The notes under the pieces were generated by a model. It worked only from the letters and a program-made list of their open reading frames with translations. It was not told the origin of the DNA and did not search any database. Shown in pieces: positions 2,003 to 38,002 of a DNA stretch of 64,000 bases. A program made the position numbers and the translations under genes. How positions within the stretch are numbered: the stretch's first letter is position 1; every line of letters begins with the position of its first letter. This DNA comes from a virus. Location: IMG/VR virus record IMGVR_UViG_3300027712_001108, positions 64,001 through 128,000 of that record, one strand, 5' to 3'.

Positions 2003-2077
2003 GCGTGTATGGTCCAGATGGATGGGCACGGGACTCTAAATCCTAGGAGGCAGGCTCAATACCTGTTATACGCACCA
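2003..2077 (+). tRNA. Amber suppressor tRNA (anticodon CTA)
   Basis: Acceptor GCGTGTA/TATACGC-A-CCA; anticodon arm CGGGA-CTCTAAA-TCCTA; atypical T-loop CTCAATA. Confidence 0.8.
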
Positions 2078-5073: not shown

Positions 5074-5151
5074 TCCTTCTAAGCTATCCAGGTGATGGTG
5101 CTCGGCTGTTAACCGAGAATAAGGCTGGTTCGAGTCCAGCAGAAGGAGCCA
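5074..5151 (+). tRNA. tRNA-Asn(GTT)
   Basis: Cloverleaf, loop CTGTTAA, G73, CCA. Confidence 0.85.
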
Positions 5152-8984: not shown

Positions 8985-10463
8985 ATGGATATTGTAATTT
9001 GTATTTTGCCAAAGATAGAGCCTAGTGCTCCGTCTGTTGGTCCTTCTATTTTAAAAAGCCATTGTATTGCAGCAGGATTTTCCTGTAAGGTGGCGGATTT
9101 TAATATAGAATTGTACAACTCTATACCAACTGATATGCAAAGTATATGGCATAGCAACGATAGTGTATTTGATAATATGCACGAGTGGTTGCCGTTATAT
9201 GAACAGACATTTAAATCTACATTTGAACAGTTTGCAGATAGACTGATAGCAGAAAACTCAACATGGATAGGACTAAGTGTATTCAGTATCAAAAGCATGT
9301 TGCCTGCAATAGAGTTGATTAAACTAATCAAACATAAGAAACCAGAACAAAAAATTGTTGTTGGTGGCGCCGGTATCTATAACGACATAACTGCGCTAAC
9401 CGCAGCAGGTGCAGACCACTGGATAGTAGGCGACGCCGAAGAAAGCATTGTGGAATTGTTAAAAGGCAATATGTCTTTTAGAGGTATAGACAACACACAT
9501 CCTTACCAAATAGACGATTTGGATTCAGCTTCCATTCCCAACTATGACGACATAGATTTTAGCCAATATGCGAATTCTAATAACAGACAAGTATATATAA
9601 CAGCAAGTAGAGGCTGTATTAGAGACTGCACATTTTGTGATGTTGCATCAATGTGGCCTAAATTTAGATTTAGAAGCAGTGCAAATGTAGTAGACGAAAT
9701 CATACAACTGCGCCAACGATACGACATTAGAAATTTCTATTTTACAGACAGTCTTATAAATGGCGGTGTTAAAATATTCAGGGATATGTGCGCAGTATTG
9801 GCACAATACAGGCAAGAAACTGGCAGCGACTGGACATTGGGTAGCCAATTCATATGCAGATCTGCTGAACAGATGCCGCCAAACGATTATGATTTAATGA
9901 AAGCAGCGGGATTTTCTTGGGTTGCAATAGGTATAGAATCTGCCAGTCAAGCTGTGCGAGATCATATGAGAAAAGGATTTACCAATGAAGATATGTGGTA
10001 CACATTCGATCAGTTACATCGGGTTGGTATAAATCTAAACATACTGCTAATAGCTGGATACCTTACAGAAACCAAAGCTGATTTTGATGAAACTCTTGAC
10101 ATGATACATCGTTTAGCTAGGGAAGATTACCTAAGCAACATAGATGCCATTAATATATTTGAAGCAATCATTTTCAAAAAAACACCGTCGTATGATATAA
10201 GCAAGCAGCTTGGTGTTATAGATATAGACAATGACACATGGCATTTGCCAGACAATACCAACAATTTAAGAGTGAGAGTTGTTCGTACATTAAAAGCGTA
10301 TACACTGATAGAACGGTACAGAGGCGATGACAAAATGTTCTGGCTTGCCAAATCTGTAATACATTCTTGTACAACTCGTTACAAAGAACTAACCGGTCGC
10401 GATTTACCAACTGATATACTAAACTATGACGAATCGCTAGAATATAACCAATTGCCTTCGTAG
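8985..10463 (+). CDS. B12-binding-domain radical SAM protein
   Basis: SRGCIRDCTFC, VVGGAG, GDAE and GIESAS motifs. Confidence 0.9.
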   Translation: MDIVICILPKIEPSAPSVGPSILKSHCIAAGFSCKVADFNIELYNSIPTDMQSIWHSNDSVFDNMHEWLPLYEQTFKSTFEQFADRLIAENSTWIGLSVFSIKSMLPAIELIKLIKHKKPEQKIVVGGAGIYNDITALTAAGADHWIVGDAEESIVELLKGNMSFRGIDNTHPYQIDDLDSASIPNYDDIDFSQYANSNNRQVYITASRGCIRDCTFCDVASMWPKFRFRSSANVVDEIIQLRQRYDIRNFYFTDSLINGGVKIFRDMCAVLAQYRQETGSDWTLGSQFICRSAEQMPPNDYDLMKAAGFSWVAIGIESASQAVRDHMRKGFTNEDMWYTFDQLHRVGINLNILLIAGYLTETKADFDETLDMIHRLAREDYLSNIDAINIFEAIIFKKTPSYDISKQLGVIDIDNDTWHLPDNTNNLRVRVVRTLKAYTLIERYRGDDKMFWLAKSVIHSCTTRYKELTGRDLPTDILNYDESLEYNQLPS

Positions 10464-12589: not shown

Positions 12590-12769
12590 ATGAAACGTAA
12601 ACAGCTAAAAGCGCCTAAACCGCGCAATCCCATTGTTAATATTGTCATGTTCCGCAGCGGTGCCGGTGTACATGACAAGCCCAACAAAGCCAAACGAGCA
12701 GCTAACAAAGTTGCTATGAAAAAGCAGGTCAGGGACAGTTTTGACCCTGACCGCAGTTTTGCAGCATGA
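12590..12769 (+). CDS. Small very basic protein (KPRNP..AGVH motif), not in ORF track
   Basis: AGGAG SD, TTGACC promoter upstream, 59 aa, stop overlaps the next ATG. Confidence 0.65.
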   Translation: MKRKQLKAPKPRNPIVNIVMFRSGAGVHDKPNKAKRAANKVAMKKQVRDSFDPDRSFAA

Positions 12770-13851
12770 CAGATACTAAACCATTTTGTTCTGCACCATG
12801 GACAAGTATTCAACATGGCTCTGTACTTCATCAAGGTGGTACATGCCCATGCTGCGAGTGGAATGGTAAAATATACAAAGGCGGTATTAAACAGTATTTG
12901 GAATCAGACTGGCTGCGCAGTGTTAAAGAAACCATGCAATCATATGACATGGATATAATCAATTCAACTTGTAAATCTTGTTTAGAAGTCGAAAAGCTAA
13001 ACATGCGGTCTAAGAGAAATCTAATAGACAACTGGATCGAATCTACCACTCTTGAATTTGACAAAATTGGATTAGTGGATTATCGGGCTAGCAATTTATG
13101 CAATTTAAAATGCAGAATGTGTTTTCCCAGTAACAGTTCTATGATTGCCAAAGAGATGAATATAGACATAGATAACAGCAACAATTTCGTTGATGATATT
13201 TACGAATATGATTTAAAAGATGTTGCTATTGTTAATATCGTAGGCGGCGAACCCAGTATAGATGATAAAGTTTTTAAGTTCCTAGATTGGTTAATTCTAA
13301 ACAACTGGCATGAACAAATGGAGTTGACTATTACAACTAATGCAACAAATACCAATAAAAACTGGATTGATCGCATTTCGAAATTTAAAAGATTAAATGT
13401 TATAATAAGTGTAGATGGTATAGGTGATGTATATGAATATATTAGAACAAATGCCAAATGGGACAGTGTAAGTAAAAACATATCCGTATACGAATCTATG
13501 CCAAATATTAGTGTAGCTTTTCAAATAACAGGCAGTATGTATAATATACCTGTAATAGAAAAATGGTTACCATGGTTTTTAGATAAGGAATATGCAAACA
13601 TATATCCGGTAGAAAGCCAACTGCATTTGACATTGGCGGCATTATCACCGGATATTAAACAAGAGAAAATTGCGTATTTAAAAACCATAAACTCTCATAT
13701 GGCAGCATCTACTATACAGATGTTAGAAAATGCAACATATGACAAGGCGGTACATTGCGCATTCGTTGATGATACTAATAAGTTAGACGGCATACGACAA
13801 ACAGACATTACCAGTATTGATACTGTTTTCGAACGAATACTGCGCCCGTAG
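12766..13851 (+). CDS. Radical SAM protein with twitch/SPASM-like Cys cluster
   Basis: CNLKCRMC, GGEP, ISVDG, YEYIR; N-terminal CSAPW..CPCC. Confidence 0.9.
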   Translation: MTDTKPFCSAPWTSIQHGSVLHQGGTCPCCEWNGKIYKGGIKQYLESDWLRSVKETMQSYDMDIINSTCKSCLEVEKLNMRSKRNLIDNWIESTTLEFDKIGLVDYRASNLCNLKCRMCFPSNSSMIAKEMNIDIDNSNNFVDDIYEYDLKDVAIVNIVGGEPSIDDKVFKFLDWLILNNWHEQMELTITTNATNTNKNWIDRISKFKRLNVIISVDGIGDVYEYIRTNAKWDSVSKNISVYESMPNISVAFQITGSMYNIPVIEKWLPWFLDKEYANIYPVESQLHLTLAALSPDIKQEKIAYLKTINSHMAASTIQMLENATYDKAVHCAFVDDTNKLDGIRQTDITSIDTVFERILRP

Positions 13852-16001: not shown

Positions 16002-16136
16002 TACATAGAACTGATGCCAGAGTCTGGTTTAATGGAACTGTGGAGAACGCAGTGGCCTATGCGCTGACACATACGGTTTTAAAGCCGGTAATCTGTTATA
16101 GCAGGTCCGTGGGTTCGAATCCCACTCAGTCATGTA
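16002..16136 (+). ncRNA. Ser-type tRNA-like RNA with ~55-nt variable region, no CCA
   Basis: D-arm CCA-GAGTCTGGTTTAA-TGG, stem ACTGT/GCAGT, T-arm GTGGG-TTCGAAT-CCCAC. Confidence 0.6.
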
Positions 16137-19614: not shown

Positions 19615-20130
19615 ATGAAATACTTGGCATTTTTAGACATAGATGGTGTTTTTACATCTGCTCGTGTACAATATGCGTCTGCAAACTCCAATGATATGTG
19701 GAACAAATTCGACCCCACTGCAATCGAGTTTATGAACAAGTTGCACGACAGAGTCAAGGATCTGCATTTTGTTTTGATTTCAACATGGAAAGAACACTTG
19801 CGCGAAGCTGATGAACAAACTGCGCATTGGATAATTGCAGCTTTTCGTAATGCAGGATTTCGCGGCGAATTTGCATCGCCGTGGAAGACCAATCCTGACA
19901 ACTTTGCTCGCTTTTATGAGAAAGGTATGACTCGCGCCAATGAGATCAAAGAATATCTAGAAGTGTATGCACCAAGTAATCAAGACTATATCATCTTTGA
20001 TGACAACGACTACGGGTTCGAAACTGTACTTGGTAAGAATCGCTGGGTGCATACCGACGGAAACAATGGTATCCTGTTGAAACACATGTACAATGCCATG
20101 AGCATTGTAGGTGAATGGGATACAAAATAA
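19615..20130 (+). CDS. HAD-family phosphatase (RNA-repair-associated type)
   Basis: FLDIDGV, ISTW and IIFDD motifs. Confidence 0.8.
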   Translation: MKYLAFLDIDGVFTSARVQYASANSNDMWNKFDPTAIEFMNKLHDRVKDLHFVLISTWKEHLREADEQTAHWIIAAFRNAGFRGEFASPWKTNPDNFARFYEKGMTRANEIKEYLEVYAPSNQDYIIFDDNDYGFETVLGKNRWVHTDGNNGILLKHMYNAMSIVGEWDTK

Positions 20131-20963: not shown

Positions 20964-21093
20964 TCCCTAGTAGCTCAGGGGCAGAGCAGCTGACTGGGTC
21001 CGAAAATACTGTAAAGTGGATTTGTGGAGTTCGAAACTCCTAGGACAAAATTTAATCAGCGAGTCGGTGGTTCGAAACCATCCTAGGGAGCCA
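20964..21093 (+). tRNA. tRNA-Asn(GTT)-like with a 55-nt insertion in the anticodon
   Basis: Perfect acceptor TCCCTAG/CTAGGGA-G-CCA; GCTGA-CTG[55 nt]TTAA-TCAGC. Confidence 0.75.
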
Positions 21094-21099
21094 AAAATT

Positions 21100-21300
21100 T
21101 CAGAAGGCAGCGTAGCTTGCACGGATGAGTGTACCACTGCAAACCAAACTTAACTGTTTTGAGTTTTGTATGTCGCCACATCGAGGTCGGGAGATCTATT
21201 CCCTATATGAGTTAGCCAAGGCTCACTCATACTGGACAAGAGTAGATCATAACCTTGGGAACCCGGACGCTGAAAAGGGGATGCATACCCGTGCCTTTTG
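21100..21300 (+). ncRNA. Unclassified structured RNA
   Basis: Closing helix CAGAAGGCA/TGCCTTTTG, internal hairpins, no ORF. Confidence 0.4.
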
Positions 21301-21525
21301 ATTTACCATGGTCCGGAAACGCCTCTTAACAATGCGCAACATTTATAGCAGGGATTTACCTGTGAACCCCAAGGACGCTTGGGACTACGGACATCAAGGG
21401 GTAATAAGCCCCACTTTATTAAACTATACAGTTGCTGAAATCACTTGCATTTCATACCCATAGACGTTAAATATATACAGTGCGGTAAGGTGCTGCACAA
21501 AACACACACATAGAGGAAATACACC

Positions 21526-23014: not shown

Positions 23015-23461
23015 ATGCCGAGCGGAGTTAAAGGAACTGGTGCAAGTTATAAAACTTATAAATGTTTGTATTGCAGTAAAGATCAAAAATGTGGTAACAG
23101 TAAAGTAAACAAATACTGTGATAATAAATGTAAGGCAGCATATGAATATATCTACAAGTACATACCACTTGTTGAAAGCGGTCAATGTGCAGCCGGTAGT
23201 AATCCTTTAAGACGATATATTTTAGAAAGAGATAATCACACTTGTACTGAATGCGCCTGCGGAGACGAACACAATGGAAAACCATTAACGCTGCATATAG
23301 ATCATATTGACGGTGATAGCGATAATAACTTTCCAAAAAACTTAAGAACACTATGCCCGAATTGCCATAGTCAAACAGATACATTTGGCAATGCAGGTAG
23401 CGGAAATAGATACAAGAAGACTGCAAAACGAAACTTGTATTTACAACAATATAAATCCTAA
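23015..23461 (+). CDS. HNH homing endonuclease
   Basis: LHIDHIDGDSDNN..NLRTLCPNCH motif. Confidence 0.9.
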   Translation: MPSGVKGTGASYKTYKCLYCSKDQKCGNSKVNKYCDNKCKAAYEYIYKYIPLVESGQCAAGSNPLRRYILERDNHTCTECACGDEHNGKPLTLHIDHIDGDSDNNFPKNLRTLCPNCHSQTDTFGNAGSGNRYKKTAKRNLYLQQYKS

Positions 23462-24808: not shown

Positions 24809-25978
24809 ATGACATCAGATCCCATTGACTGTTTTTACGCTAAAAATCATGCATTGGTATGGAGTAATGGATCTATTGCGCCTTGTTGCAATTACAAGGA
24901 TGGCGAAGATCCTATCGGCAATTATACCAACGTGTTTGAGTTTTTTAACAGCCCTGAAATGGCGCAGTTACGAGAAGATCACGCCAATGGTGTCAAACGT
25001 CAAGGTTGCCGTAAATGTTGGTCAGTTGAAGATATTGGCGGTACTAGCTATAGAAAACCCAGCAATCCCGATCACACAGGACAACTAAAAGGTTTAGATA
25101 TCGCCCTTGGTAGAACCTGCACATTGAAATGCAGAACCTGCGGTGCATTTGCTAGCAGTGCATGGGAAAGCGAATTAAAGTCGCGTGGTATACATAAGGA
25201 TTGGGGTAAACTTACCAGTGATGAAATACCAACGGCGGCATACGATCACATTGAGCAGTTAGACATCCAGGGCGGCGAACCGTTTCTCGATAAAAGACTA
25301 CCAGGCATATTAAATCATCTGCATACAAATGGTATCAGTAAGAATGTAAACTTGACTATTATCACCAATTTAGAATGGTTTCCAGACCAACGATTTACTG
25401 AACCGTTGAAACGATTTAAAAATCTACTAATCAAAATCAGTATTGATGGTGTGGGTACTAGAAACGAATATATGCGCAGTGGCAGTACGTGGGCAAACAC
25501 AATTAATACTGTTGAAAAATGGGGTCAGTTCAAACACAGTAAACCAGATAGCAATATAAAAATAGTAATCAGTCACACTATAAGCACTTTTAACTTTTTG
25601 TATTACGATGAAATGGTAGAAGAAACTGGTAAACTACGCACTTTACAGGGACTTGAAGATTTAGAACTCTGGGCGCATTATGCATTAGAGAATGAATGGC
25701 ATAATTGTTTCCTATTGCCAGATTCTCTTAAAGAAGAAGCTATAGGTATATGGGAGCAAGGTACTATACAGCCGTGGGAATATCAAACTTTTCGACATAA
25801 TACAGTAAGTATGCTATCTCAAGCGAGACCTATCCCACCGTTGCCGTTTGATAAATGGTGGTATAACAATGCCGAAATGGATAATATCAGAGGTCAGTCA
25901 ATACAAGATGCGCTGCCGGAATTAGTAAGCATGTTTGAAAAACACGGGCTCTTTTATAAAGATCAATGGACTAGGTAA
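24809..25978 (+). CDS. Radical SAM protein with twitch/SPASM-like cluster
   Basis: CTLKCRTC, GGEP and ISIDG motifs. Confidence 0.9.
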   Translation: MTSDPIDCFYAKNHALVWSNGSIAPCCNYKDGEDPIGNYTNVFEFFNSPEMAQLREDHANGVKRQGCRKCWSVEDIGGTSYRKPSNPDHTGQLKGLDIALGRTCTLKCRTCGAFASSAWESELKSRGIHKDWGKLTSDEIPTAAYDHIEQLDIQGGEPFLDKRLPGILNHLHTNGISKNVNLTIITNLEWFPDQRFTEPLKRFKNLLIKISIDGVGTRNEYMRSGSTWANTINTVEKWGQFKHSKPDSNIKIVISHTISTFNFLYYDEMVEETGKLRTLQGLEDLELWAHYALENEWHNCFLLPDSLKEEAIGIWEQGTIQPWEYQTFRHNTVSMLSQARPIPPLPFDKWWYNNAEMDNIRGQSIQDALPELVSMFEKHGLFYKDQWTR

Positions 25979-27329: not shown

Positions 27330-28465
27330 TATTGGGTAGTAACACTGTTAAGTAGCATTTGGTGATTCTTATGTGAAACAACAGGGTTAAACGCTTTCAA
27401 CAATAAGTTGGGATGTTACAATTAATCACTGTATCTACCGACTGACGATAGAGTAACAGTATGTCGATGCAAACACAGTTAGCTTTAATACACCTAACAA
27501 CAGCGAATGCTCGTTGCTGCTGAAAGAAACGACGGATGATGCAGCTTTAAAGTCCGTTGAACGCTTCTGTTGTAGATGTATTAGAGTTTGGATGATACGG
27601 CCGTTGAGAAACGTGAATATCATCTATGAGATTGGGGGTTTAGCCTCAATAGGATAAGTGCAGTGATGCACCCAAAGCCGGAAAGCCTACATACCGGCGC
27701 TAGTAAAATAGTCCATCTAAACAAGCCTGAACCAGTGTTGACTCGGGCAACCGAAAGCAACACCCGTCCGTAGAAAGGCGGTAGGCAGTAAGTTAGGAGC
27801 TCTGTCCGAAAGGATAGTCGCAGAGCCAGTCGGTGAGCGATAAGAGGGTTGGCGCCCAAACAGAGTTCAGCCAAACTAACGAATGCTGACAGTTAACAGG
27901 TAGTTACAGTGTCTGAGCCCGCAAGCAAAGGCATGGTAGCATTTCAAGAGTGGAAGGGTTAGGCCCCGGATACTTGAAGAAAGGTCAAGTAGTTCGCAAG
28001 ACGAAAGACACGAGGTGTGTTGTATTGGGTATGCCAAAAGCATATTCAGCAGCGGTGGTAGCACATCTCAGATAGGTTGCAAATAACTCAGCGGTAGAGT
28101 AATTCCCTTCTAAGGAATCGGCGAAGGTTCAATCCCTTCTTTGATAAATGCAAAGTCTACCACGGTATGTTGTGTAAGGTGTCAAATACTTGAGGCGCAA
28201 GCCAATCAAGTTCAACAAAGCTCGCAAGGCAGCGTTGATTTGTACTAGAAGATTCGTAGCTCGCAAGGCTTAATGGTTCGCAAGATCAACGGATAATAAG
28301 GTGCAGAATAGCAGCATATGACGAGTCTACTGCCTGACTCTAAAAACGGCGACACTGTTAGTGGACCAGATTACCGCAAGGGATCTAGTGGATGTCGGAA
28401 GAAAGCAACTCGCAAGGTTGGTAATAATGTCCGAAGCATTAACATCGAACGTGTAATCTCAGCGT
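27330..28465 (+). ncRNA. Large ornate ncRNA, GOLLD-like (5' boundary uncertain)
   Basis: >1 kb with no credible ORF, dense GCAA/GAAA tetraloop hairpins, 3' GTGTAATCTCAG, inside a tRNA island. Confidence 0.7.
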
Positions 28466-31444: not shown

Positions 31445-31534
31445 GGAGGGATGGCCGAGAGGTTGATGGCTCTAGTCTTGAAAACTAGCGAGGGTGAAAG
31501 CCCTCCGTGGGTTCGAATCCCACTCCCTCCGCCA
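31445..31534 (+). tRNA. tRNA-Ser(TGA)
   Basis: Loop CTTGAAA. Confidence 0.95.
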
Positions 31535-31548
31535 ATAATAATGCCAGC

Positions 31549-32685
31549 ATGACAAAGTTTTGTATACACAGCAATGCTGGCATCAGTTTAGTATCTGCAA
31601 CTGGTAAATTGATGCCGTGCTGTAAGTATAATGCAGATGACAATATCAGCAGCATTTACAACGTAACTACATTAAACGGGTTACATGACACGCCGCAATA
31701 TAAGCAGATGCAAGCACAGCTAAATGCTGGCATTTTTCCCACAGGTTGCAACTATTGCAAGACTACAGAAACTGCTGGTAGACAAAGTCGCAGACAACAT
31801 ACAAATCAAATGTATGACGATTTGAATATGTACGTACCAGGCCATGTGCAAGACATGGAAATTGCACTGGACTATACTTGTAACATGATGTGCAGAATGT
31901 GCAATCCAGGTGCTAGCAGCAAATGGAATATTGCACAATCTGTAATAAAGCAATTTGCAGAGCAGAAGATTGAATTAGATGGCAATAACAAATACCGTTC
32001 ATACCAAGATCAACTGCGCAGCGTATTAGACAATACTGATCTTAGCCATGCTAGAATAGTAAAAATAGAAGGCGGTGAACCGTTCTATGCTAAAAATTTA
32101 GAATGGTTCTTAGACAAACTAGATAAAGAAGTACTTGATAAAAGCAAACTATACATAAACATATTCACCAATGGCAGCATATATCCATCTGTTACGGTGC
32201 TGGAAAAACTAGCAAAATTGAACGCTGCAATCATATTCAGTATTGATGCAGTAGGTGAATTAGCTAGTACAATTCGCTGGGGTGTAGATTGGAACGTCAT
32301 TGCTGACAACATAGGCAAATGGCGCAAATTTGTTGATGCAAATCCACAAATGTCATTGCAAACCAACATAACAGTAAGCTTGCTTAATGTTAATAGACTG
32401 TCACCACTGCTGGCATTTTGTAAAAAATTGAATATAGATATAAACTTCAGCGAGTTAACATTCCCACATTACCTTAGTATCTATCAGCTACCCAAATCTG
32501 TTAGACAGCGTTGGACATACGATGACGAAACGCTAACTGGTATGATAATGGCAGATGTTGCGATTGAACCGGAATTTGCCAAGTTCATAGCCAGTGTAAA
32601 TATACTAGATGCATATCAAGGCTACAGTTTCGAAACTGTTAACAATGAGATGTATCAACTAATACAATCTCTATCCCCATGTTAA
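31549..32685 (+). CDS. Radical SAM protein with twitch/SPASM-like cluster
   Basis: CNMMCRMC, GGEP and FSIDA motifs. Confidence 0.9.
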   Translation: MTKFCIHSNAGISLVSATGKLMPCCKYNADDNISSIYNVTTLNGLHDTPQYKQMQAQLNAGIFPTGCNYCKTTETAGRQSRRQHTNQMYDDLNMYVPGHVQDMEIALDYTCNMMCRMCNPGASSKWNIAQSVIKQFAEQKIELDGNNKYRSYQDQLRSVLDNTDLSHARIVKIEGGEPFYAKNLEWFLDKLDKEVLDKSKLYINIFTNGSIYPSVTVLEKLAKLNAAIIFSIDAVGELASTIRWGVDWNVIADNIGKWRKFVDANPQMSLQTNITVSLLNVNRLSPLLAFCKKLNIDINFSELTFPHYLSIYQLPKSVRQRWTYDDETLTGMIMADVAIEPEFAKFIASVNILDAYQGYSFETVNNEMYQLIQSLSPC

Positions 32686-33183: not shown

Positions 33184-33810
33184 ATGGAAAACACAATTAT
33201 ACCAATAGATCGATACTGCGACAGTGGATGCGGCCATTTAGCACAATTTTTTAGTACTAACACTGGTCGATACAGGTGTACAAAGAGTGCAAGTAGCTGC
33301 CCTGCTAATAAAGCAAAAAATAGTAGTGCATTAAAACAAGCACATAAAGACGGTAAATTACCTAAATTTACCGACGACATGCGACTTAAAAGCCAAATAA
33401 GTTTTCGTCGAAATTTGGTAAAAGAACATGCATTTGAAGATCTCGGTCATACATTGCGCAAAAAAATTGTAATAGAAGATCAGGAATATAAATGTGCGCA
33501 TTGCGAATTAGAAGAATGGATGGGATTACGTATAACATTAGAGCTTGACCATATAGACGGTAATCGATCTAATAATGTTAGAAATAATTTACGATGTTTA
33601 TGTCCGAACTGCCATAGTATCACCGATACATGGAAAATGGGACAACATAAAGGAAAGAAATCTAGAAAATGCAGCGATGATGAAATAATTGCAGCATTTA
33701 ATAAAACCGGCAGTATAAATGCGGCCCTTAAAGCATTAAATATGAATTGGGGGTCAGTTAGTACTGTTAAAAAAGTGTTGTTTAAATATGGAATCATAAA
33801 CGAAATTTAG
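33184..33810 (+). CDS. HNH homing endonuclease
   Basis: LELDHIDGNRSNN..NLRCLCPNCH motif. Confidence 0.9.
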   Translation: MENTIIPIDRYCDSGCGHLAQFFSTNTGRYRCTKSASSCPANKAKNSSALKQAHKDGKLPKFTDDMRLKSQISFRRNLVKEHAFEDLGHTLRKKIVIEDQEYKCAHCELEEWMGLRITLELDHIDGNRSNNVRNNLRCLCPNCHSITDTWKMGQHKGKKSRKCSDDEIIAAFNKTGSINAALKALNMNWGSVSTVKKVLFKYGIINEI

Positions 33811-37827: not shown

Positions 37828-38002
37828 GCGGTTGGTAATCCTGAAACCCTGAGACAAGTGAGGTGAGAACGCCCGTCTCACACACCAGCAATGGTAAAGT
37901 AGCGCAAGCGAAGAGATGCAGGAATCCTGTCTGTATGGCAGGTTGAAAACTGGGAACCTGCCACTTGTCAATACCCATTAAGATCGGCAGTAGGCCAACC
38001 AC
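37828..38002 (+). ncRNA. Unclassified structured RNA / 5' leader
   Basis: GGTTGGT/GCCAACC closure, GACAAGTG/CACTTGTC, GGCAGGTT/AACCTGCC. Confidence 0.45.

Follow-up and report, generated by a model that had tools for sequence, protein, structure and literature searches.

A split tRNA-Asn gene

The window analysed here, by which we mean the whole stretch of DNA at its full length of 64,000 nucleotides (nt), corresponds to bases 64001-128000 of the IMG/VR virus record IMGVR_UViG_3300027712_001108, and at window positions 20964-21093 (+) it holds a complete tRNA-Asn(GUU) gene that is interrupted by an insert of 55 nt (20997-21051). All window coordinates given below refer to the plus strand. The source record is 157,923 base pairs (bp) long and was estimated by CheckV to be ~30% complete, so that the absence of a gene from the record is a statement about 158 kilobases (kb), or ~30% of the genome. 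The phage belongs to an environmental lineage with the standard genetic code, a G+C content of 42% and a relative of 518 kb.

The split gene is visible only with laxer Rfam filters or in the intron mode of ARAGORN (-i), and was reported at 20964-21093 neither by an Rfam scan with default filters nor by ARAGORN without intron mode. The Rfam tRNA covariance model aligns over its full span (model 1-71) to positions 20964-21090 and scores 45.2 bits, against a gathering score of 29, with 59 nt in place of 4 expected loop positions. ARAGORN -i gives a tRNA-Asn(gtt), 20964-21093, in which position 34 is followed by an intron of 55 nt. As had been observed in the initial annotation, the acceptor, D, anticodon and T stems are all present, as are G73 and the CCA end. 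The 5' exon (20964-20996) supplies the 5' strand of the acceptor stem, the D arm, the 5' strand of the anticodon stem and C32, U33 and G34, while the 3' exon (21052-21093) starts with U35, U36, A37 and A38 and continues through the 3' strand of the anticodon stem, the variable loop, the T arm and the 3' strand of the acceptor stem to G73 and CCA. In a BLAST search of INPHARED only the 3' exon was matched, in tRNA-Asn genes of Acinetobacter phages, and no close genome was found among the INPHARED phages.

The record contains 35 tRNAs, and the split tRNA-Asn is the sole intron-bearing tRNA within it. A tRNA-Leu(taa) with a 36-nt intron was also proposed by ARAGORN -i at 16007-16134 (+); this candidate has mismatches in the acceptor and anticodon stems, Rfam is blind to it, and it is probably false. 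A second tRNA-Asn(GUU), which had been annotated as uninterrupted and indeed is so, lies at 5074-5151 (+). It is 78 nt long, scores 40.6 bits and has an unusual shape, with an odd D arm and a 7-nt variable region, a form similar to that at locus L089:7887-7964. Since this second gene exists, the split gene is dispensable in principle. With its insert removed, however, the split gene is the more canonical Asn tRNA of the two, its score being higher than that of the second copy (45.2 against 40.6 bits) even with the insert in place.

Intron-less orthologues and the exact junction

Four orthologous loci were compared (L087/L094, L095, L096 and L097), and in all four the tRNA-Asn is uninterrupted. 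The first was reached through the neighbouring HAD gene, whose protein is 87% identical to that on a related phage contig of 518,643 bp (L087), and the last three were found by scanning metagenome contigs with the 5' exon. L087 shares the gene order His, Trp, Met, Asn, and its uninterrupted tRNA-Asn is 75 nt long. The joined exons are identical to it at 73 of 75 positions (97%). The 5' exon, 20964-20996, is identical to L087:19825-19857 and to the other intron-less orthologues, and the two differences both lie in the 3' exon, where an A replaces a G in the variable loop and a U5-A68 pair replaces U5.G68; both are compatible with the tRNA fold. Identity in the upstream spacer is 45/68, and the identity of the exons is among the highest of the tRNAs common to both phages.

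Taken by itself, the split sequence offers four registers that give a legal anticodon loop of 7 nt, with UUU, GUU, GGU or GGG as the anticodon, and UUU had been put forward as an alternative obtained by a shift of one base. The loops of all four orthologues read CTGTTAA, and with G as its first and U as its last nucleotide, between flanks of G and U, the insert has no end that is able to slide; the insert therefore lies exactly between G34 and U35. This excludes UUU and agrees with ARAGORN -i on the boundaries first proposed, namely 20997-21051 within a tRNA-Asn(GUU). The insert is thus a presence/absence polymorphism among related phages, present here and absent in four loci, and such an absence does not necessarily point to inactivation. 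Gain and loss of the insert are indistinguishable, as all four intron-less loci represent one sister lineage.

In the same relative, at L087:8972-9082, ARAGORN -i called a tRNA-Tyr(gta) with a hairpin-like insert of 16 nt (CTG-TGTAATACCAAGACAG-TAA) and a poor cloverleaf.

Anatomy of the insert

The insert is predicted to fold like a reduced tRNA. Its two ends form an acceptor-like stem, in which the 5' strand GGUCCGA (20997-21003) is opposed to the 3' strand UAGGACA (21041-21047) and five of seven pairs are formed in register with insert nt 1 (G2-C, U3-A, C4-G, C5-G and A7-U), the mismatches being G1/A and G6/A. The 3' strand directly adjoins the T stem of a T-arm-like hairpin, GGAG-UUCGAAA-CUCC (21026-21040), which fits the T-loop consensus GTTCRANNC and has a 4-bp stem. 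Both this hairpin and the GTCC/GGAC pairing had already been pointed out in the initial annotation. A small hairpin with a GNRA loop, UACU-GUAA-AGUG (21007-21018), stands where a tRNA would have its D or anticodon arm and is present in the minimum free energy (MFE) fold both of the insert and of the whole precursor. The insert ends in a single-stranded 4-nt tail, AAAU (21048-21051), equal in length to the N73-CCA tail of the introns found in tRNA-Lys hosts (see below). When the cloverleaf was enforced, the fold of cloverleaf plus insert was 0.9 kcal/mol above the MFE.

In 300,000 shuffles of the insert the T-arm-like hairpin arose in 136, and together with the in-register end-pairing stem in 3. 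With only 3 of 300,000 shuffles reproducing the layout of a mini-tRNA, a chance origin of that layout is excluded. The local similarity of the insert to its host reached a score of 14, compared with 6.9 ± 1.35 for shuffles (3 of 2,000 attained 14), and was barely above the score of 13 against other tRNAs of the window, suggesting that the insert is generically tRNA-like. The resemblance of the hairpin to the host T arm had been remarked on in the initial annotation.

Comparison with known introns and mobile sequences

Bacteria and their viruses are not known to splice tRNAs other than through self-splicing group I introns. Such introns, found in bacterial and plastid tRNA-Leu(UAA), -fMet, -Ile and -Arg, likewise sit in the anticodon loop and come and go among relatives. 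Group I introns are at least ~200 nt long, however, and have a P1-P9 catalytic core, whereas the phage insert has 55 nt. In Rfam scans at E values up to 10, in context and alone, the insert matched no family, group I and II introns and small ribozymes included. A group I intron was accordingly rejected (no RF00028 match at E up to 10), as was a small self-cleaving ribozyme of the hammerhead, twister, pistol, hatchet or HDV-like kind, and no hammerhead core (CUGANGA...GAAA) was seen in register by inspection of the insert. The early remark that an insert of 55 nt falls far below the size of group I and II introns is correct.

Archaeal and eukaryal tRNA introns, which are excised at a bulge-helix-bulge by EndA/Sen and rejoined by RtcB or Trl1, are short like the phage insert, and their removal depends on proteins, as that of the phage insert would if it takes place. 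Non-canonical positions are known for the archaeal ones. Unlike them, the phage insert has no bulge-helix-bulge, RtcB is lacking from the record, and the hosts are bacteria. When the cloverleaf was imposed, a weak 3-bp helix contained the 5' junction and a 5-nt bulge adjoined the 3' junction, and an intron of the bulge-helix-bulge type was therefore rejected. The expectation that an archaeal-type splicing endonuclease would be missing agrees with the lack of any match to PF01974 (tRNA_int_endo) in the 158-kb record.

Removal of the insert by its own activity is not to be expected, and proteins must cut both junctions and reseal the loop if the tRNA is used. That the locus reflects self-splicing or self-cleaving RNA after all, or an assembly artefact, is extremely improbable. 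Nothing specific speaks for either, the size of the insert and the Rfam results stand against the former, and a random misassembly would not yield a tRNA-shaped insert at the exact position at which the class described below carries its own.

The insert was also compared with the products of simpler rearrangements. Against the 3' half of the host it aligned at 29 of 42 columns with gaps, no better than against other tRNAs. A partial tandem duplication of the host tRNA was rejected, the order of segments being a misfit and the similarity generic, and so was an attL/attR-type remnant of a tRNA 3' half, the insert having only 55 nt and the same generic similarity. A recent inactivating duplication had been named at the outset as the outcome that would speak against a mini-intron; of this, the absence of the insert from the orthologous loci was found, but a simple duplication of the 3' half of the host was not. 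No target-site duplication is present at the junctions, no second copy of the insert exists in the 158-kb record or the related loci, and a 21-mer of the insert found no match in IMG/VR viral contigs. The pattern GCTGACTG-N45-65-TTAATCAGC gave 83 matches in viral contigs, none of which was a tRNA, and the junction pattern had no match in metagenome contigs.

A class of nested inserts in tRNA genes of large phages

Viral contigs were scanned for a second T loop (GTTCRA) located 8-20 nt upstream of TTAA-N14-T loop, a pattern that requires the T loop and leaves the stems free. The scan returned 84 candidates, in 31 of which ARAGORN -i calls an intron-bearing tRNA; with GTTCGAA fixed it gave 6 matches, none of the family. 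Some 20 further tRNA genes of phages, for Asn, Lys and Ser, were retrieved that carry a nested mini-tRNA insert (for example L104, L109, L134, L118, L140 and L102). The scan accounts for nine distinct Asn hosts, in which CTG and TTAA enclose 46-69 nt, and ~10 Lys hosts, in which CTT and TTAA enclose 58-81 nt, the anticodon being split at the same position in both. A class II tRNA for which tRNA-Ser(GCU) is the best reading, at L102:10267-10400 (and in L098), carries a 50-nt insert after G34. This insert closely resembles the tRNA-Asn intron of L116, indicating that the same type of intron occurs in two different host tRNAs.

In nine of ten Lys-host introns a 7/7-bp acceptor stem begins at intron nt 1 and adjoins a 5-bp T stem, and the intron closes with a 4-nt tail (ACCA, ACAA, ACGA, GCCA or ACCG). 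In six Asn-host introns the +1 position of the nested tRNA equals the junction after an allowed 1-nt slide, and the intron spans +1 to 73. Junctions across the class fall after nt 34, or after nt 35 with a 1-nt slide. Class-wide, the 5' junction therefore coincides with the position at which RNase P would be predicted to cut, and the present insert is in the same register, with +1 at its nt 1 and a 4-nt tail as in the Lys type. The acceptor, T and host anticodon stems vary in sequence between members yet remain paired. Since differing stems stay paired and the outer anticodon stems covary, both the nested and the outer tRNA are under structural selection in the class, which is hard to reconcile with dead genes. 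These stems were measured by script; a covariance model of the class was dropped, as MAFFT misaligned the variable arms and RNAalifold recovered the T arm only.

Like the other members, the present insert has an end-pairing acceptor-like stem, a T arm adjoining the 3' strand of that stem, and a short tail. Its acceptor-like stem forms 5/7 pairs, as against 7/7 in the Lys-type members, its T stem is limited to 4 bp, and a D arm of the TAGCATAAGTAATGC type is lacking; no other member has nested stems as weak. It differs from the retrieved members also in sitting in a host tRNA for which both a paralogue and orthologues free of the intron exist. The nearest match in sequence is the tRNA-Lys intron of L140 (identical to that of L217), which aligns over 26 nt at 85% (E 0.08 in 1.9 Mb) and shares with the present insert the GGAG T arm, CUCC-UA, a 4-bp end stem and a purine-rich 5-nt tail.

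Introns of this kind were first noted in Lak megaphages, whose tRNA genes carry introns that were called 'enigmatic' (Devoto et al. 2019, Nat Microbiol, PMC6784885), and of the intron in the Lak tRNA-Thr(TGT) it was stated that it 'itself may encode a tRNA', related phages occurring with and without it (PMC6784885). In the intron of the Lak tRNA-Tyr (Table S6, PMC6784885) we have found a T arm, ttggttcgaatccaa, adjoining tatgtag, which is complementary to an upstream ctacata. Like the present insert, the Lak introns are short and non-ribozyme, lie in the anticodon loop of a tRNA of a very large phage and contain a nested acceptor stem and T arm. The present insert differs from them in its phage lineage, its Asn host, its length (55 nt, against 93 nt in the Lak tRNA-Tyr) and its more degraded state; no sequence homology between the two was found, and its junction is pinned between G34 and U35 by orthologues. 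What was known, then, is a class of unexplained inserts in tRNAs of large phages, and what is new is the present locus as, by its architecture, a somewhat worn member of it.

The class, in which tRNA-shaped inserts of 46-93 nt are nested in intact phage tRNA genes, is a misfit with the picture of group I introns only, and this means that either a protein-based route of splicing awaits description or tRNA-like RNAs are widely carried inside tRNA genes. The unspliced RNA, or a freed mini-tRNA of 55 nt, might itself be the product, serving as a decoy for host nucleases that target tRNAs or for tRNA-binding proteins, or as a small RNA released by RNase P, with the outer tRNA as its scaffold for transcription and processing only. 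The tails of the Lys-host relatives are ACCA-like, as in mature tRNAs, the nested stems covary across the class, and phage tRNA arrays hold other non-decoding tRNA-like RNAs, the window itself having a tRNA embedded in a GOLLD RNA. Against this, the tail of the present insert is AAAU rather than CCA, its nested stems are degraded, and a mere scaffold leaves the perfect outer anticodon stems and loops of the class unexplained. A chargeable but non-decoding decoy, which had been suggested earlier, is unlikely in particular, since asparaginyl-tRNA synthetase needs a contiguous GUU anticodon and reads G34, U35 and U36, which are here 55 nt apart. Taken together, we consider an RNA product of this sort decidedly improbable.

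Orphan T-arm-like hairpins were also seen in viral contigs just after a tRNA or tRNA-like gene, at L099:3771-3819(-), L103:7542-7590 and L100:3927-3980(-). They stand three in a row in L099 and L103, and in L100 a single one follows a tRNA-Asn similar to the split gene.

RNA-repair enzymes

A ligase of the T4 Rnl1 type (locus G000:C1:7645-8892), recognised by PF09511 (106.6 bits) and T4_Rnl1_C and bearing a KLDG motif, is encoded in the record, as is an AAA_33 P-loop kinase with the motif GVPGSGKS. An RNA-repair HAD phosphatase of the 'Swiss Army Knife' kind (HAD_SAK_2) is encoded at 19615-20130 (+), 830 bp upstream of the split tRNA-Asn (PF18143, 58.1 bits, motif I DIDGV). The proposal to search the genome for ligases and endonucleases was thus rewarded in part, with ligase, kinase and phosphatase found and splicing endonuclease, RtcB and Rnl2 not found in the 158-kb record. 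Since the intron-less relatives also carry the HAD phosphatase, that gene is not specific to the insert.

Kinase and phosphatase could heal the ends of a cut precursor before Rnl1 seals them, as in the repair by phage T4 of tRNA-Lys cut by PrrC. The three activities are present as separate genes with intact motifs, one of them close to the split tRNA, and the junction between G34 and U35 is the site at which colicin E5-type nucleases cut tRNA-Asn. Healing and sealing nevertheless seems improbable as the route by which the insert is spliced. No candidate endonuclease was found, there being no tRNA_int_endo gene in the record and no bulge-helix-bulge in the constrained fold; the position of the class junctions at +1 and at the 3' end of the nested tRNA would be left without explanation; and the repair genes are present in the intron-less relative too.

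Proposed removal of the insert

We tentatively favour, with somewhat less than even confidence, the reading that the locus is a tRNA-Asn(GUU) gene with a nested, tRNA-shaped mini-intron between G34 and U35, a worn member of the class whose removal, should it occur, would fall to proteins. The initial annotation had included among its explanations a protein-spliced mini-intron, which might hide the anticodon from nucleases, and a protein-spliced mini-intron fits the architecture of the class and the RNA ligase toolkit of the phage; excision itself is a step that we infer. Throughout the class the nested tRNA begins, at its +1, where the 5' exon ends, which suggests that RNase P makes the 5' cut. 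The nested mini-tRNA might then act as a processing signal, RNase P cutting at +1 and leaving G34 with a 3'-OH, and a 3'-end endonuclease, RNase Z- or RNase E-like, cutting past the 4-nt tail in an A/U-rich single strand so that U35 would bear a 5'-phosphate. RNase P, RNase Z and RNase E leave 3'-OH and 5'-phosphate ends, and T4 Rnl1 seals nicks with such ends in tRNA anticodon loops. The halves could thus be rejoined by an ATP-dependent RNA ligase for 3'-OH/5'-phosphate nicks in the anticodon loop, for which the phage's own enzyme of the T4 Rnl1 type would be the obvious candidate.

As a general proposal, phage tRNAs of this class could be split 'pro-tRNAs', from which the end-processing enzymes of the host would cut the mini-tRNA while the cloverleaf holds the halves together and an ATP-dependent ligase of the phage seals them. 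In this broad form the idea is speculative and, in our estimation, rather unlikely. If true, it would constitute a third and so far unknown pathway of tRNA splicing, operating in bacteria only during infection. There are precedents for tRNA-like processing signals, such as mascRNA at the 3' end of MALAT1, the tRNA punctuation of mitochondrial transcripts and the t-elements of plants, at which RNase P and RNase Z cut. In these, as in the phage insert on the above proposal, a tRNA-shaped module within a longer transcript defines both cuts. Their flanks, however, are not rejoined, whereas the phage insert would need ligation and its module lies inside another tRNA.

Several observations weigh against removal. 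The Rfam tRNA model does not recognise the insert when it is scanned alone, and beyond the 26-nt look-alike no homologue of the insert was found, nhmmer giving none and MAFFT aligning the T loop only. Recognition of the present insert by RNase P is doubtful in view of its weak acceptor-like stem, mismatched terminal pair and 4-bp T stem. In the Lys-type introns the 3' cut must fall after the CCA-like tail, which is not the usual site of RNase Z. As the orthologues do without the insert and a second tRNA-Asn exists, loss of function of the split gene would be tolerated. The genes for ligase and kinase/phosphatase-type repair occur in the intron-less relative as well, and RNA-repair genes are common in jumbo phages (PMC7824862). 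Among 20 records of the class, Rnl1 was present in 5, PF09414 exceeded its cut-off in 6 and RtcB was present in none, and two of seven complete intron-bearing genomes gave only sub-threshold ligase matches. There is no strict link between ligase and class in these figures, which cover the 20 records of the class and neither support nor refute the model. In the literature searched, no paper on a removal mechanism was found beyond Devoto et al. (2019), and none that demonstrated splicing of a member.

A disabled gene copy is hence a serious rival, and quite a possible one. The nested element would have entered one of two tRNA-Asn genes, or would survive only here, and would never be removed; the gene, on its way to becoming a pseudogene, would yield no decoding tRNA, and the insert would at most be a selfish passenger on a tRNA promoter. 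The absence of the insert from four of four orthologous loci, the second tRNA-Asn and the weakness of the nested stems (5/7 pairs and 4 bp) all agree with this, as does the failure to find another copy or close homologue in the record, the related loci, IMG/VR or the metagenome contigs. The split tRNA-Asn is also the only intron-bearing tRNA of the record, which therefore gives no sign of routine splicing by the phage. On the other hand, the exons have kept 73 of 75 positions, neither change disturbs the fold and one even converts a U.G pair to U-A, and the split gene is the more canonical Asn tRNA of the two copies. Furthermore, the outer tRNAs of the class are intact, and their stems covary with homologous inserts inside, which is not expected of dead genes.

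To the class as a whole the locus adds a junction that is fixed to the nucleotide by four natural intron-less alleles, a reduced variant, with its 4-bp T stem and mismatched acceptor, that bounds the tolerance of any removal machinery, and a phage that encodes the ligase, kinase and phosphatase which the two ways of sealing would require. The regular coincidence of the 5' junction with the +1 of the nested tRNA makes of the 'enigmatic' introns a specific hypothesis that is testable with standard enzymes, and the split locus and its intron-less sister allele would be a ready-made test pair.

The surrounding tRNA-rich region

The split gene lies in a tRNA-rich region of the window of 32 kb, which holds 34 ARAGORN tRNAs, a GOLLD RNA (28012-28465 (+), 217 bits) and a skipping-rope RNA (37853-37969 (+), 49.8 bits). 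The tRNA embedded in the GOLLD RNA is a tRNA-Arg(tct) at 28077-28147 (+). A further Rfam tRNA call, at 2003-2074 (+) with 41.1 bits, stands 6 nt past the tRNA-Met at 1921-1997 and has no counterpart in ARAGORN.

Immediately 3' of the split tRNA-Asn, ~325 nt at 21094-21420 (+) show strong conservation across the four orthologous loci. The only match of this stretch in Rfam is a weak abiF-like 20-mer at 21320-21339. In its consensus fold 85 pairs form, compensatory changes are seen at 17 of these, and the 3' end is a GC hairpin followed by a U run. The stretch has the appearance of a structured RNA, not described before, that is transcribed together with the split tRNA-Asn. Since the intron-less relatives have it too, this RNA is not tied to the insert.

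Protein-coding genes are also interspersed among the tRNA genes. HNH endonuclease genes are located at 23015-23461 and 33184-33810 (+), and four radical-SAM genes at 8985-10463, 12766-13851, 24809-25978 and 31507-32685 (+), one of which has a B12-binding domain and one a SPASM domain.

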